From Sulfurospirillaceae bacterium (GTDB taxonomy: Bacteria; Campylobacterota; Campylobacteria; Campylobacterales; Sulfurospirillaceae): a stretch of DNA of 64,000 nucleotides. Shown here piece after piece: positions 34,201 through 40,200 of the stretch. The position numbers were made by a program. The DNA lies in NCBI GenBank assembly GCA_033723415.1, contig JAWVXD010000003.1, forward strand, positions 64,001-128,000. The letters are read 5' to 3'. Within the stretch, counting starts at the first letter, position 1. Every line of letters starts with the position of its first letter.

Positions 34201-37200
34201 TATAACGTTAACATTAAAAAAGGGAAAACAATATGCTCTTGTTAAAATTGAAGATAATGCAGGAGGAATTAATGAAGATGTTATTGAAAGGATATTTGAA
34301 CCGTATTATACGACTAAACATGCCAGACAAGGTACAGGAATAGGACTTTATATGAGTAAGATAATTATAGAAGAAAATATGAACGGATATATATATGCTC
34401 AAAATAAGAATGAAGGAGCTTTATTTATAATAAAATTAGCTATCAATTCTCATTAGATTATTAATCATACATTTATATAAAAATTGTATAATTCAAGCTA
34501 ATTTAGGGAACATAGGTGAGCGTAATGCTCCAAATTCAAACTTTTTAATTTTATTTTTTGGTTTTAAAAACCTCTTCAAAGAAATGGAAAACAAAAGGAT
34601 GGAAAACAAGTTTGTAGAGTTGATGAGAGATCGTGTTTTAGCGATATATCATCAAAGTTTTTGTGTAAGCAAAAATGCATCTGTAAACAGGAAAACAAAG
34701 AAATGGAAAACAAAATGCAAAACAAAACTCAACATTATTTATTTACCAGTGAAGTTGTCAGTCCAGGACATCCTGATAAGTGTGCGGATATTATAGCTGA
34801 CAGTATTGTCGATAAACTTATTATCGAAGACAAAAATTCTAGAGTTGCCAGTGAAGTATTCTTGGCTGGAAAACATATTATCATAGGTGGAGAAGTTACT
34901 ACTAAAGCAAAGATGACTGCTAAAGATTATCAAAAGATAGTCAAAGAAGCACTTATTAAAATTGGTTATGACGGTAAATCTTCTTTTACAAAAGAGCAAT
35001 GCCTTTACCCTGATGAAGTGGAGGTTCAAGTACTTTTAAACCATCAATCACCTGATATCAATCAAGGAGTCGATCAGACAAGCGGAGAGATAGGAGCAGG
35101 AGATCAGGGCATTATGTTTGGCTTTGCTTCAAATGAAACAGCTGATTTTATGCCATCAGCCATTATGTACGCTAGAATGTTGTGTGACAAAGTGTATAAT
35201 TATGCACTTAAACACAATCATAAACTAGGTGTTGATATCAAAACACAAGTTACTATGGATTATGGTACAAAAGAAAATTTTGAAAATTGTCAGCCTCAGA
35301 AAATTCATACTATAGTGGTTTCTGCACCATCAGTGGAAAATATGCCTATTGAAGAAGTTCGAGCATTGATCAAAGGTCTTATCGACGATACAGGTCTTCC
35401 GACTGATCTTTATGATCCAAATGACACTATTATTCATATAAATCCGACTGGAAGATATGTAAATCACAGTTCTCTTCATGACTCTGGTTTGACAGGTAGA
35501 AAACTTATAGTAGATAGTTTTGGCGGTTATTCTCCTATAGGCGGTGGAGCACAATCTAGCAAAGATTATACAAAAGTAGATAGAAGCGGTCTTTATGCGG
35601 CACGCTGGATAGCAAAACACATAGTAGCCAGTGGACTTGCAAAAAAATGTTCAGTTCAACTTTCATACGCTATTGGTGTTGCAAAACCGGTATCTGTAAG
35701 CGTAGATACATTTGGAACTTATACGCTTGTGAGTGATGATATCCTTTCTAACTTTGTTATGGATACTTTTAGCTTGACTCCAAAATGGATCACAAATAAA
35801 TTTAAATTAGATCATCCAAGTAGTGAAACTTTTCTTTATGCAGATGTAGCAGCACGTGGTCAGGTCGGACAGAGTGATTACCCATGGGAAAAATTAGATT
35901 CATTGGATCTTTTTGAAACTTTAAAGAACATATACAGTTAGTTTATAATTAAGACGTAAAAGTGTGTGAATAATCACACACTTTTACTTGATTATTTAAT
36001 CTTTGTTTCAAAAACTCTAAGCAGTGAGACGGTTAAGATTATAAATCTCTCAATAATAGAATCTTTTTCGATAAATTCATTTCTACTGTGATCATCTGCT
36101 CCTATTGGACCAAAACCATCAAGTACCGGAGTATTTACATTTGCTATTGCATTTGCATCAGAAACACCTCCTCGAAATTCTCTCCCGAATTTTACATTAT
36201 ATCCTTCTATGATATTTTTAAGATCTTCGTAAAAGGAGAGATTGAGTGTCGATTCTTCCATGCTCCCTCTACCGCTGGTAATCTCTAACTTACTTGTGAC
36301 ACCGTCAACAAAGTTCATAGAATCAATCTCGGCAAGTTTTTGTTTTATATTTTTTTCATCATCACTATTTGTAAAGCGAATATCTATAGTTGCTTTTGCA
36401 TAGTCACTTATAGTGTTCGGTCCTACTCCTCCTGAAATCTTGCCGACATTAGCAGATATTTGTGTGTTTGTATCATTAATATTTTCGATTTCAATTATCT
36501 TGTGTGCAAGTTCTAAAATCGCACTTTTTTTCCCTGCAATTTTAAAGGCCGCATGTCCGGCTTCTCCAAAACATTCTAGAGAAGCTCCGATTTTGCCTTT
36601 TCTTCCTGTTACTATTTCACCGTTATGTCCAGCTCCCTCTAAAACAAAAGCTGCAGCTGATCTTTTTGCCTCTGTTTCAATATAAGGCTTTGAGAAAGGT
36701 GAACCGATCTCTTCGTCAGAATTAAAGAAAAAAGTTACCGGTATCTTTTTTAGTAGATTTTTATGTTCCAAAAACTTCAAAGTCATAATACCGATAAGAA
36801 GACCGCCCTTCATATCAAATACACCAGGACCCTTTATGATACCATCACTCTCTGTATAATCTAAAAAACCGGCATCTTGAGGAAATACAGTATCCATATG
36901 TCCACATAGCATTATCTGTGTGTTTTTAGTTTTGACAGCAGGAGTACTGGCTCTAAGTAGATTCCCGTACGTATCACTTTCGATAGTCTGATAATCAAAA
37001 GAAGTTCCAAGATAAGACTTTATCGTATCTAGTACTTTGTCTATACCTGCTTTATTGTAACTATAACTGTTGATCTCGATAATCTTTTTAAAGAGCATGA
37101 AGAATTCATCTTCATGCTCACTAAAGTATTGTTTTAGCTCATTTTCCATGTATGAGTCTTATCTATATTTTTCAAATGCAAATGGTTGATTATACTCTTC

Positions 37201-40200
37201 CATCGTCATGTCTGGATAATCTACTTCTTCTCCGCTCCACGGTTTTTTCAGTTTTAGATTTCCATTTTCTGCATGTACTACGTTGTCTCTGTGAAGAGGG
37301 ATCTTACCGCCGGCAGTTGCTAGGTATCTAGGTATCGCATCACCAGAGATATTTCCATACATACTCTCAACTATATCTCTACCGACAGAAACAGGTACTC
37401 TCATGTGTGCAAACTCAGGATTTCTAAAGCTACAGTTGAACAAGTAGTAAGGTCTGATGTAAGACTCTTGCAATGCTTCACATAGTTTCCACATTTTGTT
37501 TCTTGTGTCGTTAATACCTCTAAGGAATACTGCTTGATTTAAGATAGCACTTGTCACTTTGCTAAGCTTTCTAAATGCTTCATGTGATTCAGGTGTCAAC
37601 TCTTGTGCTGAGTTGATCTGCGTTACAAATCTAAGTGGTTTGATATCGTTACTTTTTTCACAGATCTCCAAAAATTTATCATCGATTCTTTGTGGTGTCA
37701 TGATAGGGATTCTGCTTCCCAATCTTTTGATCTTGACATGAGGAATCTTGTCTAATTCATTTAATAAGTATTCGATTTTTTTATTTGATAAAGCCAGTGC
37801 ATCACCGCCTGTAATAAGAACGTCTCTGATATTTTCATCATTTCTTATGTAATTTAGTGCTTCTTCATAAGTATTATTTGAACTAACCCAGTCTTTATCC
37901 GATATATGTGCAATTCTCAAACAGTGTGTACAAAACATAGCACACATATTTGTAGCTTTTATAGTTAAGACTCTTGGATAAAATTGGTCTATCAATCTTG
38001 CAGGTGAGTGATCACTTGCAACAGGTTCAAGTTCTATACCATTGTTATCGACCATATCTCCGGTAGGTACACTTTGGAGTAAAATAGGGTCATTTATTTG
38101 GTTTGGCATTATTAAACTTGCGTAGTATGGAGAGATTCTCATCCTAAAAACTTTAGATACTCTTTGGATATCTTCTATAAGTTTTTGAGGAATATCTATG
38201 ATGCTCGCAAGTTGTTCAGGAGACGTTATAGCATATTTTATTTGTCCTGCATAAGAATCCCAGACTTCATCTGTCATTCCTAGTTTCTTCTGTATTTTTC
38301 TTCTGTTCTCTAACATTTGTTCATGTAAGTCAAAACCGCTTGGTGCGTCATCTTTGTTATTATCCAAGTAATCTTTGACTCTTGCGTTTGCTTTTTCAAC
38401 TATCGGCAGTGCTGAATATACTCTACCTCCAACTGACACGCGGTGTTCATCTGTATTTTTATGTTTCATTGCCATCAAATACAGTTCATCTTTGTCAATA
38501 CCGATGTCTTCAGGAGTCGCACCGAATTTTTCTCTTATAGTTTTTAGTTTATTGAATAGTTGAACCATCGGATTGGTTAATTTTTGTGAAGTTTTACTGA
38601 TTTCCAGCCACTCTTTTACTTCGTCAATATCTTTTTGACTTACTTCTTTTTTATCGTTTGAAGGTTCATATAAAAGCTCGAATAATTTTATATCAAATTT
38701 ATCAAGTTTCTCTAGATCCTCATTGCTAACAGCACATTCCATCTTATATCCTTTTAAATTTTGTTATTTCGTTATATCTTTAAATATAACATTTAATTAG
38801 GGCAATCTATTGATCTATCAATCGTAGATGAGATCATTTCTTTGCCAATAGCTATACCGTGATTTATATCTTTAAAATTTTTGCCGAGTGCTACGACTCG
38901 TGCTAAAAATGAACCTTTGTTTACAATAAAATTTTGTCCTACGTGTTCTAGTATCATATGCTCCTTATCTATTTGGTTTTCCATTATTTTTTTAAATATT
39001 TCTAATTCATCACTTCTATGTACAAGGCCGCTATTTGTTTTTGATGTAGCTTCAAGTTTATAGTTATATGTTTCCCAAAAAATATCTTGATTGTTAAAAT
39101 CAGGTTCTATCATGTTTGGGGCTTTTTTATTTTGTGTTACGGCATAAAACTCAATCTCCGGCAAATTTGGAGCATTTTCTGGAAGTATGCAGTTTAATGT
39201 GCAGCAAAATTCCATAGTAGTACCTTGTTTCCTGGGATTTGTTTCTATAAAAAACACTTCATCTTTATCTGTTACGATAAAATCGCATCCAAAGATACCT
39301 CTATATCCAAGTTTTGCCATTTTTTTACCTATTTCTCTTGTTTGTCTTATAATTTCTTCTTTCACACTTAAAGAGACACGTGAAGGGAAAGCTGAACCCT
39401 TGAATTTTGTACCGTCTATTGTCTGATCTGCGATTCCTGCAACGTATATATCTTCTTCATTTATCGCTACGCAAAGAGTTGTCGGATCACATACGTGAGG
39501 TATGAATTTAGTTATTAAAAATTGGTCATCTTTATTTTTGCCAAATTTTTGAGTTATACTATCAATATCTTTAGCGATCAAGCTGTTTACTCCGGCTGCG
39601 CTTTTTTCAAGTGAGATAAAAATACCGTTGTTATCTTCAAAAGATTTGAGTAGCAAAGCCGATTTTTTTGTCAATTCTTCAAATCCGTTTGCAATTTCAT
39701 AAGGAGCCATAGGGACTATATTAGAAAAGATTTCATAAAGAGCAATTTTATTGCTTAATAACGATACTATCTTTTCATCCGGACCTATTACTCTGATTCC
39801 ACTTTTTTGATCCAATGTCATATGACGATTGGACTCGAACATATAAATAAAAAGTTCTTTTTGCTTTCTCAAAATTGTGTCTGTTAGATCATTTATGTAT
39901 TCGCTGTTGGAAACATCTCGCATAAAAAGATCATTGCTCTTTCTTTTATTCTCTCTATCTTTGATTTTATTGACGACTATTATGTTTTCGAAATTATAAT
40001 TGTCAAATACATCCGGAACTATCGTTATACACTCTATATTTGCTTTATCTATATGGTAAATCTTTGAAATTGCCTCTTTGGCAAAATTGCCTATTCCAAA
40101 TGCCTTTATCTCTGTTATAAACAAAAAATAATATTTATTTTCATCATATGTAAAATTTGTAAACCTAATATCGCTATGCATTGGTTTGCTCATTGTTTTT

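Follow-up and report, generated by a model that had tools for sequence, protein, structure and literature searches.

Glutamate 2,3-aminomutase (Eam, the TIGR04368 type of Clostridioides difficile) and lysine 2,3-aminomutase (KamA/AblA, PDB 2A5H) belong to the same superfamily and share a PLP/radical-SAM apparatus. BesA is one of the ATP-grasp enzymes that act as gamma-glutamyl or L-amino-acid ligases. In the butirosin pathway (BtrJ/BtrG) and in Puu-type pathways, a modifying enzyme works between a ligase, which attaches a gamma-glutamyl group, and a cyclotransferase or hydrolase, which takes it off. The product of BesA is gamma-glutamyl-propargylglycine (10.1101/2025.10.10.681649). In the AblA/AblB pathway, a KamA-family enzyme and an acetyltransferase that acylates the beta-amino acid convert lysine to the compatible solute N-epsilon-acetyl-beta-lysine (PMC9337991). 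For the TAXI-TRAP importer VcGluP/VcGluQM of Vibrio cholerae (PDB 8S4J), 13 residues of VcGluP that contact glutamate have been listed (PMC11574862). The locus described here resembles each of these systems and differs from each. Like the BtrJ/BtrG and Puu-type pathways, it pairs a predicted ligase with a predicted remover, and a GGCT-family gene in Sulfurospirillum parallels BtrG, but the modifying enzyme is a 2,3-aminomutase and a carrier protein is absent. Where AblA/AblB employs an acetyltransferase and lysine, this locus has an ATP-grasp ligase and, in addition, a hydrolase.

The window analysed is a stretch of 64,000 nucleotides from a Sulfurospirillaceae bacterium (contig JAWVXD010000003.1, positions 64,001 to 128,000). 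A preliminary description had recognized in it a minus-strand trio of M20 peptidase, KamA homologue and ATP-grasp ligase, and both Pfam and NCBIfam agree with this assignment (Table 1). The trio is tightly packed, and its ORF coordinates leave gaps of 9 nt (M20/KamA) and 50 nt (KamA/ATP-grasp). The first gene of the operon is gntR, whose 3' end shares 4 nt with the start of the ATP-grasp gene. A hairpin between the convergent M20 and metK genes is a candidate terminator that closes the operon.

Table 1. Features of the operon and of the divergent importer genes; positions are those of the window.
Feature	Position	Strand	Size and remarks
Hairpin, candidate bidirectional terminator	35956-35987	both	14-bp stem; terminator scan
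M20 di-zinc amidohydrolase gene, CPG2/DapE-like type	35992-37149	minus	385 aa
KamA-family radical-SAM/PLP 2,3-aminomutase gene (P0001)	37159-38742	minus	527 aa
ATP-grasp amide ligase gene	38793-40193	minus	466 aa
gntR, GntR-family regulator with FCD effector domain	40190-40843	minus	217 aa; Pfam GntR and FCD
Paired palindrome, candidate operator of the FCD regulator	40861-40893		gntR/TAXI divergent region
TAXI-family TRAP solute-binding protein gene, predicted glutamate-binding type	41126-42091	plus	321 aa
Fused TRAP permease gene, partner of the TAXI protein	42212-44380	plus	722 aa; TIGR02123, Pfam DctM

The ligase, aminomutase and hydrolase form a real, conserved three-gene module, as had been proposed. 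ATP-grasp, KamA and M20 genes occur together at 68 of the 87 loci with enough flank. Of the remainder, three have the ligase and a GGCT-family gene, two have M20 and a gamma-glutamyltranspeptidase (GGT) while the ligase is absent, and 12 have the ligase-aminomutase pair with no neighbouring hydrolase. Counted by position at 70 loci with enough flank, the ligase gene lies immediately upstream of the aminomutase at 67 and M20 immediately downstream of it at 54; the third gene is M20 at 56 and of the GGCT family at five.

The aminomutase belongs to an uncharacterised branch of KamA-type radical-SAM enzymes, and our literature search found no experimental work on any member of its family. It passes the general NCBIfam model TIGR00238 (243.6 bits, cut-off 199.2). 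Its best-scoring model is the glutamate model TIGR04368, at 337 bits below a cut-off of 650; the NCBIfam lysine aminomutase model gives 271 bits (cut-off 525), and the C-terminal region of lysine aminomutases (LAM_C) was not matched in a Pfam search. An AF2 model (pLDDT 94.3) finds 2A5H as its top Foldseek match (E 3e-30, TM 0.78 on target), and identity to the lysine enzymes is 33-35%. Aligned to 2A5H with phmmer (E 2.1e-62, query residues 154-493), the protein retains Cys125/129/132 as the CxxxCxxC motif, in agreement with the preliminary description. It also retains Arg134, which holds the alpha-carboxylate, as Arg276, and the PLP lysine Lys337 as Lys480. With the GGD motif also kept, the predicted protein retains everything that catalysis requires.

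The substrate pocket is another matter. Recounting on the same alignment places Ser438 in the column of Asp293 and Thr476 in that of Asp330, which bears out an earlier hand count. Lysine aminomutases carry Asp at both columns in the family alignment, and Lys and Asn occupy them in glutamate 2,3-aminomutase P0125 (693 bits, cut-off 650) and in its close relatives; the SFLD paper agrees. A one-residue loop insertion relative to Eam, missed in the preliminary description, puts Arg440 two residues past Ser438; the predicted pocket consists of Ser438, Arg440, Asn441 and Thr476. The motif FNCSxRN, with its Ser and Arg, is found in all 161 family copies, and the Thr476 column holds Thr in 146 of 153 readable copies and Ala in the other seven. 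The enzyme had been said to have a non-lysine, non-glutamate pocket; the lysine-holding Asp pair is indeed gone, but because an Arg follows the Ser in 161/161 copies the second half of that phrase is not established. A three-residue deletion relative to the glutamate aminomutases precedes the PLP lysine. The N-terminal extension (about 115-150 aa) is helical and conserved across the family. It had been described as 150 aa without a match; relative to TIGR04368, whose alignment begins at residue 117, it is nearer 115 aa, and about 40 residues of extra N-terminal region are common to the family and the glutamate 2,3-aminomutases. In the tree, the family is a clade with 100% SH-aLRT support on a long stem that adjoins the Lys/Asn glutamate aminomutases. 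Judged by alignment and tree, the aminomutase is a separate new subfamily with its own pocket; it differs from Eam, its nearest clade, in about 115 extra N-terminal residues and in its fixed ligase and hydrolase partners. In five carrier genomes searched there is no canonical glutamate aminomutase above the cut-off, and therefore the two enzymes would not be redundant.

The ligase is recognized by Pfam ATP-grasp_3 (40.6 bits, cut-off 23.2), and NCBIfam gives only weak matches to LdmS, BesA and PurT (BesA equivalog 29 bits, cut-off 750). Its AF2 model (pLDDT 93.3) yields a generic ATP-grasp fold in fold searches. A PDB search with the ligase-family profile has BesA (8yi6) as its best match (E 1.8e-8), over about 100 residues; the N- and C-terminal substrate domains of the ligase are unmatched. 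Its nearest characterised relative thus appears to be BesA, an L-propargylglycine--L-glutamate ligase, by a weak link. The third gene matches Pfam Peptidase_M20 and M20_dimer, with NCBIfam scores of 219 for PRK07338 (cut-off 357) and 174 for glutamate carboxypeptidase (cut-off 349). CPG2 is its best PDB match (E 1e-15), and 18 orthologues share H84, D86, D112, E146, E147, E171 and H354 without exception. In Sulfurospirillum, M20 is replaced by a putative GGCT that has the YGSL motif and the invariant Glu. Its homologues are named gamma-glutamylcyclotransferase or ChaC by their sources, and its scores are below threshold (Pfam AIG2_2 19.8 against 27; an AIG2-like protein at E 0.13 in a PDB profile search). 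All families of the GGCT superfamily are described as cleaving gamma-glutamyl derivatives (10.1101/2025.01.15.633182). In the ligase-less variant, a GGT (PF01019, E 7e-99) follows KamA-M20, and an Opp-type ABC peptide importer is also encoded. The partner enzymes, namely the BesA-like ligase, the putative GGCT in the M20 slot and the GGT, point to gamma-glutamyl chemistry.

The importer and the regulator are linked to the operon. The TAXI protein scores 341.7 bits with TIGR02122 (cut-off 84) and matches VcGluP at E 6.3e-87; the permease, fused in both systems, scores 650.5 bits with TIGR02123. Ten of the 13 glutamate contacts are identical, and the TAXI protein is predicted to be of the glutamate-binding type. 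The changes are S40G, H123Y and D157Q. Because these three water-mediated contacts differ from VcGluP, the ligand may not be L-glutamate itself. The G40/Q157 signature recurs among TAXI proteins linked to the module, and TAXI or TRAP genes lie inside the fetched flanks of 64 of the 161 loci. A gntR orthologue is upstream of the ligase at 18 genome loci in three phyla. The palindrome ATTGTCGACAAT has two perfect copies, 21 bp apart and 18-50 bp upstream of gntR, which are its only matches within the window against 0.19 expected. The pair overlaps a minus-strand promoter-like site (40919-40892), and the core TTGTCGACAA recurs no more than about 60 bp upstream of gntR at 13 of the 18 gntR-bearing loci. 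The paired ATTGTCGACAAT is a candidate operator of the FCD regulator, conserved across three phyla.

A dipeptide-like, amide-linked product or substrate, as had been suggested, is the natural reading of these genes. The partners make or cut glutamate-linked amide bonds, and therefore the operon probably makes or recycles a beta-glutamate-type compound that is not yet known. Our preferred reading, to which we give a probability of about 0.4, is a glutamate-fed, FCD/GntR-regulated module that makes and dismantles a gamma-glutamyl-linked conjugate of the beta-glutamate type. TAXI-TRAP would import glutamate or a close analogue. The aminomutase would act on a glutamate skeleton and shift its amino group between C2 and C3. 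This skeleton would be either free glutamate, clamped by Arg440, Ser438, Asn441 and Thr476 where the known glutamate aminomutases use Lys and Asn, or the glutamyl part of a gamma-glutamyl amide. The BesA-like ligase would use ATP to form a gamma-glutamyl-type amide, which gives a dipeptide-like conjugate with a beta-glutamate-type unit; gamma-glutamyl-beta-glutamate would be the simplest product consistent with every partner. The M20 hydrolase, or in other lineages gamma-glutamylcyclotransferase or gamma-glutamyltranspeptidase, would dismantle it. The FCD/GntR protein may act at the paired palindrome and keep both divergent units repressed in the absence of its effector. The sequences show which genes are present and conserved, which cofactor motifs and pocket residues they encode, how the families are related and where the operator lies; we infer the substrate, the bond formed and the place of the shift before or after ligation, as well as a role as an anionic solute or a nitrogen/carbon store. 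This reading is favoured by the glutamate-aminomutase sister clade and the top rank of TIGR04368, by FNCSxRN and the TAXI contacts, by the GGCT and GGT partners, by the constant upstream ligase with BesA as its best profile match, and by operator conservation. Against it, the operon encodes both an enzyme that would make the bond and one that would cut it, which seems wasteful if its purpose is biosynthesis alone. In addition, 12/87 loci have no adjoining hydrolase, the BesA link is weak, the putative GGCT scores below threshold, three TAXI contacts differ from VcGluP, and a search for a riboswitch or other osmotic signal found none. A substrate-type FCD repressor with an importer is also more usual in catabolic operons.

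In a catabolic alternative, which we consider rather unlikely, the reactions follow the gene order ligase, mutase, hydrolase. By the logic of the Puu-type amine gamma-glutamylation pathways, the ATP-grasp enzyme would tie imported beta-glutamate to an amine or amino-acid handle; in the ligase-less variant a beta-glutamyl peptide would be imported instead. The aminomutase would then produce a gamma-glutamyl amide from the beta-glutamyl one; M20, GGCT or GGT would free glutamate or 5-oxoproline from this product, and the handle would be recycled. The FCD repressor and the candidate operator common to operon and divergent importer fit this scheme, as do the frequently linked importers (TAXI/TRAP, and Opp-type ABC in the GGT variant); the variant that lacks the ligase and has two hydrolases beside a peptide importer is sensible only as breakdown. 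GGCT would require a gamma-glutamyl amide with a free alpha-amino group, the product of the shift in that direction, and a neutral amide is consistent with specificity columns that have lost both their cationic Lys and their Asn. The scheme does not, however, account for the ATP spent, because the known glutamate aminomutase interconverts free glutamate and beta-glutamate without a handle. The hydrolase that the scheme requires is missing next to the pair at the same 12 loci, the invariance of Arg440 points to a carboxylate that remains bound, and we know of no 2,3-aminomutase for an amide-linked substrate. In favour of the scheme, beta-glutamate is reported to be abundant in marine microbes (730 mM in Nitrosopumilus) and to be a methanogen osmolyte (PMC8269262).

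It is improbable that the gamma-glutamyl group protects a diamino acid (lysine, ornithine or diaminopimelate), with the ligase gamma-glutamylating one amine, the aminomutase shifting the free alpha-amino group of a substrate whose tail is now neutral, and M20 or GGCT then stripping the gamma-glutamyl group to release a beta-diamino acid. With the Asp pair that grips the lysine amine replaced by neutral Ser and Thr, the pocket would suit an amine that carries an acyl group, and the carboxylate of the glutamyl group could be bound by Arg440. Some loci have two extra genes between KamA and M20, one for a GlnA-like ligase and one for a further, short aminomutase; this second aminomutase has Glu at the Asp293 column, which suggests a basic substrate and agrees with the diamino scheme. 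However, M20 enzymes usually require a carboxylate beside the scissile nitrogen, the tree groups the family with glutamate and not with lysine or arginine enzymes, the importer is of the glutamate type, and protection brings no evident benefit. Removal of gamma-glutamyl groups from amines is described for BtrG-type and GGACT-type enzymes, which lends the scheme a precedent for deprotection (10.1101/2025.01.15.633182).

The small or neutral substrate originally put forward (for example alanine shifted to beta-alanine and ligated into a carnosine-like dipeptide solute, with M20 as dipeptidase) is the least probable, for although Ser and Thr occupy both classical specificity columns and beta-alanyl dipeptides are handled elsewhere by ATP-grasp synthases and M20 dipeptidases, the pocket loop has an invariant Arg and Asn, glutamate enzymes are the sister group, a glutamate-type importer is linked to the operon, the GGCT and GGT partners are specific for gamma-glutamyl bonds, and amino acids with a C3 heteroatom (Ser, Thr, Cys) would give unstable 2,3-shift products.

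What survives of the original interpretation is the module and its distinct aminomutase subfamily; the substrate class and the idea of a Campylobacterota-typical metabolite are not supported. The aminomutase is rare in Campylobacterales (10 of 401 sampled genomes, 3 of 96 genera) and common in Desulfobacterota and Deferribacter; a scan of species genomes gave 229 family matches. The enrichment of M20/ATP-grasp pairs reported for the order does not concern the trio. The carriers are anaerobic sediment bacteria, in which the operon probably makes or recycles the beta-glutamate-type compound. M20/ATP-grasp neighbourhoods that have no aminomutase also occur in this genome and in one relative.

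The aminomutase lies in a set of four closely packed minus-strand genes, together with a regulator, an ATP-grasp protein and an M20 hydrolase, and it is the only KamA-family gene found in its genome (2.43 Mb, 17 contigs). The gene set and its flanks are listed in the table.

Features of the aminomutase module and its flanks (positions within the window)
Feature	Position	Strand	Remark
Response regulator and histidine kinase pair	32065-34456	+	one flank of the module
metK, S-adenosylmethionine synthetase	34661-35941	+	converges on the operon
Hairpin, strong	35956-35987		between the M20 gene and converging metK
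M20 hydrolase	35992-37149	-	Pfam catalytic and dimerisation domains
KamA-family protein, 527 aa	37159-38742	-	TIGR00238
ATP-grasp protein	38793-40193	-	start overlaps regulator stop by 4 nt
GntR/FCD regulator	40190-40843	-	Pfam GntR 50.3 bits (cut-off 27), FCD 57.1 bits (cut-off 24.3), both above cut-off
TAXI-type TRAP binding protein	41126-42091	+	divergent from the operon
Fused TRAP permease	42212-44380	+	after the TAXI gene
Apolipoprotein N-acyltransferase Lnt	44442-45722	-	other flank of the module; 498 bits (cut-off 427)

The metK gene shares a candidate terminator hairpin with the operon of a SAM-dependent enzyme. This adjacency is probably due to chance, since no metK match was found in the 80 related genome loci tested; the same loci gave no match to Lnt. 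Riboswitches were found neither in eight loci nor in the window.

Its sequence places the enzyme in the KamA family. The whole protein scores 243.6 bits against TIGR00238, for which the curated cut-off is 199.2. It reaches 337.1 bits on the glutamate 2,3-aminomutase model TIGR04368 (equivalog at least 650; a genome search gave the same value) and 271.4 bits on the lysine 2,3-aminomutase model TIGR03820 (equivalog at least 525), with Ser and Thr in place of the two aspartates. Residues C267, C271, C274, R276 and K480 correspond to C125, C129, C132, R134 and K337 of the lysine 2,3-aminomutase structure 2A5H and are (nearly) invariant in the family. We take them to be the CxxxCxxC cluster motif, the arginine for the alpha-carboxylate and the PLP-binding lysine. 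The enzyme thus differs from the glutamate and the lysine 2,3-aminomutases in score and in specificity residues, while its cofactor chemistry appears to be alike. The catalytic hallmarks of all three enzymes of the module (aminomutase, ligase and M20) are intact.

The specificity residues were read from a phmmer alignment to 2A5H (E 2.1e-62), which places Ser438 at Asp293 and Thr476 at Asp330. Representative homologues were classified with NCBIfam and then aligned to read the same two columns. Lys and Asn are found there in the reference glutamate 2,3-aminomutase (693 bits, cut-off 650) and in six near relatives, Asp and Asp in four true lysine enzymes, and Asp and Thr in an arginine enzyme. 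According to a paper on this subgroup, the two aspartates bind lysine, and in glutamate enzymes a conserved Lys and Asn replace them and bind glutamate (PMC3965090, SFLD). Because the recounted alignment, the reference columns and this rule agree, the Ser and Thr reported in the preliminary description stand, and the Lys/Asn pair of the glutamate enzymes is replaced here by Ser438 and Thr476. Two further differences had been overlooked: one extra residue lengthens the loop that follows Ser438 (FNCS[YF]RNP), and three residues are deleted before the GGK of the PLP lysine. The Ser, Arg and Asn of the FNCSxRN motif occur in all 161 family copies from genomes and metagenomes, Thr476 in 146 of the 153 copies with a readable stretch (Ala in the other 7), and the pocket motif is identical across all module architectures. 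An arginine (here Arg440) with Ser, Asn and Thr around it is a set classically associated with carboxylate binding. The description of the pocket as a non-glutamate one is therefore not established. The AF2 model of the aminomutase has a pLDDT of 94.3, and in this prediction residues 1-150 form a confident helical domain, which is conserved and carries a KHxxxDEHxV/TxxGGR stretch. The glutamate-aminomutase model TIGR04368 aligns already from residue 117.

Many homologues of about 525 aa with 57-85% identity are found in Sulfurospirillum, Sulfurovum, Deferribacter and numerous Desulfobacterota, including Desulfobacterales, Desulfobulbales, Desulfonatronovibrio, Desulfomicrobium and Desulfohalobiaceae. 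A scan of one-genome-per-species collections gave 229 matches. Among 2144 matching protein clusters the best 120 are at least 57% identical, and the remainder includes other KamA families. The whole family forms one cluster in a library of 50%-identity representatives, where it is followed by full-length relatives with 44% and 40% identity and then by glutamate aminomutases with about 38%. A maximum-likelihood tree of 57 rows groups the family with the 44% relative in one clade (SH-aLRT 100%) on a long stem of 0.79 and places this clade beside the Lys/Asn glutamate clade with weak support (84-88). A metagenome scan for loci of the sister clade, with the 44% relative as query, returned main-family loci only. 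The sources name the homologues "KamA family protein", "lysine 2,3-aminomutase" and, for one of them, "glutamate 2,3-aminomutase". Canonical glutamate aminomutase is absent from all five carrier genomes searched, so glutamate as a substrate would not be redundant in these carriers; this removes an argument against glutamate and proves nothing.

Within its own order, the Campylobacterales, the enzyme is rare (10 of 401 sampled genomes, 3 of 96 genera). An enrichment of M20/ATP-grasp pairs in this order had been noted earlier; such pairs probably belong to other systems. In a relative of the same family (genome G367, L164:406-4088) two ATP-grasp genes of the RimK-like kind come after an M20 gene, and one of the encoded ATP-grasp proteins ends in a helix-hairpin-helix domain; no aminomutase belongs to this neighborhood. 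Pairs of this type are probably the kind behind the Campylobacterales figure. Contig 9 of the genome studied here has a further M20/ATP-grasp neighborhood without an aminomutase (L163:1-4137). There, a second M20 gene, with 33% identity to that of the operon, lies beside a family-5 peptide-binding protein; an AstE/AspA-type deacylase gene and the start of one more ATP-grasp gene run divergently from this M20 gene.

The partners of the aminomutase are conserved across lineages. Among 80 genome loci, ATP-grasp is encoded directly upstream in 67 of the 70 that have at least 1.4 kb of upstream flank, and M20 directly downstream in 54 of the 70 with at least 1.2 kb of downstream flank, with two more within 4 kb. 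When 80 metagenome loci and the window were added, 87 loci had flanks of at least 1.5 kb on the upstream and 3 kb on the downstream side. These comprise ligase and M20 (68), ligase only (12), ligase and a putative gamma-glutamylcyclotransferase (GGCT)-family gene (3), M20 and GGT without ligase (2), M20 only (1), and neither (1). Of 161 loci, 64 have TAXI/TRAP genes in their flanks and 20 a GntR gene. Beyond the module, importers, regulator and Usp, clustering of neighbors gave lineage-specific genes only; 2-thiouracil desulfurase, HD, CBS-ACT, AOR and MCP neighbors are of this kind and are regarded as unrelated to the module. Many loci, drawn from different lineages, have a universal stress protein (Usp) gene adjoining the TRAP permease (e.g., L071:10872-11372, L030:14060-14590 and L137:11902-12402), and a Na+/H+ exchanger gene is near the module in two Deferribacter loci (L007, L009). 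Together they hint weakly at a link to stress or salt.

The ATP-grasp protein belongs to its superfamily by Pfam ATP-grasp_3 (40.6 bits, cut-off 23.2) and by fold (VIA-align Z about 25 to PurT and PurK, 22.9 to BesA). Foldseek and VIA-align identify the generic ATP-grasp fold only, with PurK, PurT, biotin carboxylase and peptide ligases tied, and its ESM Atlas matches are clusters of hypothetical proteins only. With a profile of 42 ligase orthologues, BesA is the best PDB match (E 1.8e-8). The ligase scores 29.2 bits on the BesA equivalog NF042917, which requires at least 750; this likeness hints at the chemistry but is no ground for membership. BesA is named L-propargylglycine--L-glutamate ligase, and its pathway continues with an enzyme that acts on gamma-L-glutamyl-L-propargylglycine (10.1101/2025.10.10.681649).

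The M20 protein has both Pfam domains of its family (catalytic, 76.7 bits, cut-off 24.6; dimerisation, 55 bits, cut-off 21). It scores 173.9 against 349 for the CPG2-type glutamate carboxypeptidase NF004788 and 219 against 357 for the PRK07338 hydrolase. Residues H84, D86, D112, E146, E147, E171 and H354, presumably the metal ligands as in CPG2/DapE, do not vary among 18 orthologues. The five closest loci of the Sulfurospirillum type (L001-L005) have in the M20 slot a putative GGCT-family protein of 165 aa, the start of which directly adjoins the aminomutase stop. VYGSLL stands in its N-terminal part, and its LDxRERGY stretch is invariant; across 22 homologues Y11 occurs in at least 90% of rows and G12, S13, L14 and E89 are invariant. 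The sources name homologues gamma-glutamylcyclotransferase or ChaC. The sole matches of the 165-aa protein are below threshold (Pfam AIG2_2, 19.8 bits, cut-off 27; AIG2-like 2jqv, E 0.13 with a PDB profile). According to a preprint, a YGSL motif and a catalytic Glu mark the gamma-glutamylcyclotransferase-like superfamily, all enzymatically characterised families of which cleave gamma-glutamyl derivatives, and its member BtrG takes off a protective gamma-glutamyl group (10.1101/2025.01.15.633182). The genome studied here has the M20 and no homologue of the 165-aa protein. In relatives with the GGCT gene the M20 paralogues are only 29-39% identical, a comparison by identity alone and not by rigorous orthology, and the one examined is in another context. 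In a ligase-less variant (L091, L094 and L111; L074 is similar), an Opp/Dpp-type peptide ABC importer is followed by the aminomutase, M20 and a 533-aa gamma-glutamyltranspeptidase (GGT; PF01019, E 7e-99). Three independent partners, namely the BesA-like ligase, the putative GGCT-family protein and GGT, point to gamma-glutamyl bonds.

The TAXI protein scores 341.7 bits on TIGR02122 (cut-off 84.35) and aligns with the glutamate-specific VcGluP (PDB 8S4J) at E 6.3e-87. Thirteen VcGluP contact residues, taken from PMC11574862, were mapped onto this alignment. Ten of the glutamate contacts are identical, including Tyr45 and Gln93, which that study found to be the most important (PMC11574862). The other three (Ser40 to Gly, His123 to Tyr, Asp157 to Gln) are all water-mediated, and module-linked TAXI proteins of other loci likewise have Gly at Ser40 (17 of 20) and Gln at Asp157 (17 of 20). 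The ligand is therefore predicted to be glutamate or a very similar compound.

The intergenic region between gntR and the TAXI gene contains two perfect copies of the palindrome ATTGTCGACAAT, 21 bp apart. They are its only matches in the window (0.19 expected), and the pair overlaps a promoter-like site. Of the 18 genome loci with a gntR gene, 13 have the core TTGTCGACAA at most about 60 bp upstream of that gene; the loci bearing the core belong to Campylobacterota, Deferribacterota and Desulfobacterota. The FCD/GntR protein is thus a putative dedicated regulator with a conserved candidate operator. Two Desulfobulbales genomes also have a copy of TTGTCGACAA between gntR and the ligase gene (L035:6458-6467, L070:6456-6465), which suggests a second control point.

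We propose that the module is centered on glutamate. The aminomutase would move the amino group within a glutamate skeleton. A gamma-glutamyl-type amide would be formed by the ATP-grasp enzyme and cleaved by the M20, GGCT or GGT enzyme. We infer that gamma-glutamyl-beta-glutamate would be the simplest compound to suit a BesA-like ligase, a glutamate importer and hydrolases of all three types. The shift could act on free glutamate held by an Arg clamp or on the glutamyl half of the amide; an amide substrate would be in keeping with the larger pocket, in which Lys and Asn have been lost.

Net flow may be the assimilation of beta-glutamate-type compounds. The design of repressor plus importer, the gene order (ligate, shift, cleave), the ligase-less variant with its importer and hydrolases, the requirement of a cyclotransferase for exactly the alpha-amino gamma-glutamyl form, and the abundance of beta-glutamate in marine archaea (PMC8269262) all favor this direction. 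Net flow may instead be the synthesis of a solute: the ATP-dependent ligase is near-universal, 12 loci are without an adjacent hydrolase, Usp genes lie beside the permease in several loci, and many of the named carrier taxa come from saline or marine habitats. On the most far-reaching reading, this would be the first 2,3-aminomutase to act on an amide-linked (gamma- or beta-glutamyl) substrate rather than on a free amino acid, and the module would then be the missing beta-glutamate assimilation route of anaerobic sediment bacteria, a reading that we consider unlikely, at roughly one chance in five. ATP would be spent to attach a handle, the amino group would be shifted from beta to alpha, and cleavage would give glutamate or 5-oxoproline. 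Beta-glutamate is among the most abundant archaeal solutes.

The module shares with AblA/AblB the combination of an aminomutase and an acylating enzyme, and it resembles the logic of gamma-glutamyl addition and removal in butirosin and in amine catabolism. The literature searched gave no described system that combines these parts and nothing on this aminomutase family; unannotated clusters have been noted for this KamA subgroup (PMC3965090, SFLD). Among the NCBIfam models, the established substrates of the enzyme class are lysine, glutamate and arginine only. The family is uncharacterised, widespread, sharply defined and experimentally approachable: the branch is tight, with its own pocket and fixed partners, and yet the sources give it only the three names above. 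Solving it would define a new specificity code for radical aminomutases and correct a common misannotation. For the sulfate- and sulfur-reducing bacteria that live in saline sediments, it would bring to light either a beta-amino conjugate made from glutamate or what becomes of beta-glutamate. The conserved candidate operator and the FCD regulator offer an easy experimental handle on the true effector.

Several loci contain further KamA-family genes. In some Desulfobacteraceae-type loci (L031, L032, L036, L038 and L148; e.g., L032:9600-12113) a short KamA protein (357 aa) and a GlnA-like ligase (436 aa) are encoded between the long aminomutase and M20. The GlnA-like ligase is below the GlnA cut-off and has some likeness to gamma-glutamylputrescine synthetase. 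In the 357-aa copy, Glu stands at the Asp293 column, and Ala or Thr close to the Asp330 column. Its scores with the arginine, lysine and glutamate models are about 350-365 bits and fall below the cut-off in each case. Desulfonatronovibrio has a divergent 372-aa paralogue on the minus strand upstream of the ligase (L017:186-1304, L048:465-1583, L049:4965-6083), with Arg at the Asp293 column and a long tree branch. In Desulfoprunum, a 599-aa KamA-family protein is encoded two genes upstream of the module (L063:4016-5815, minus strand); it has the Lys/Asn pair of glutamate aminomutases but scores 240 bits on that model, and a similar gene is found elsewhere in a Desulfopila genome (G403, contig 13).
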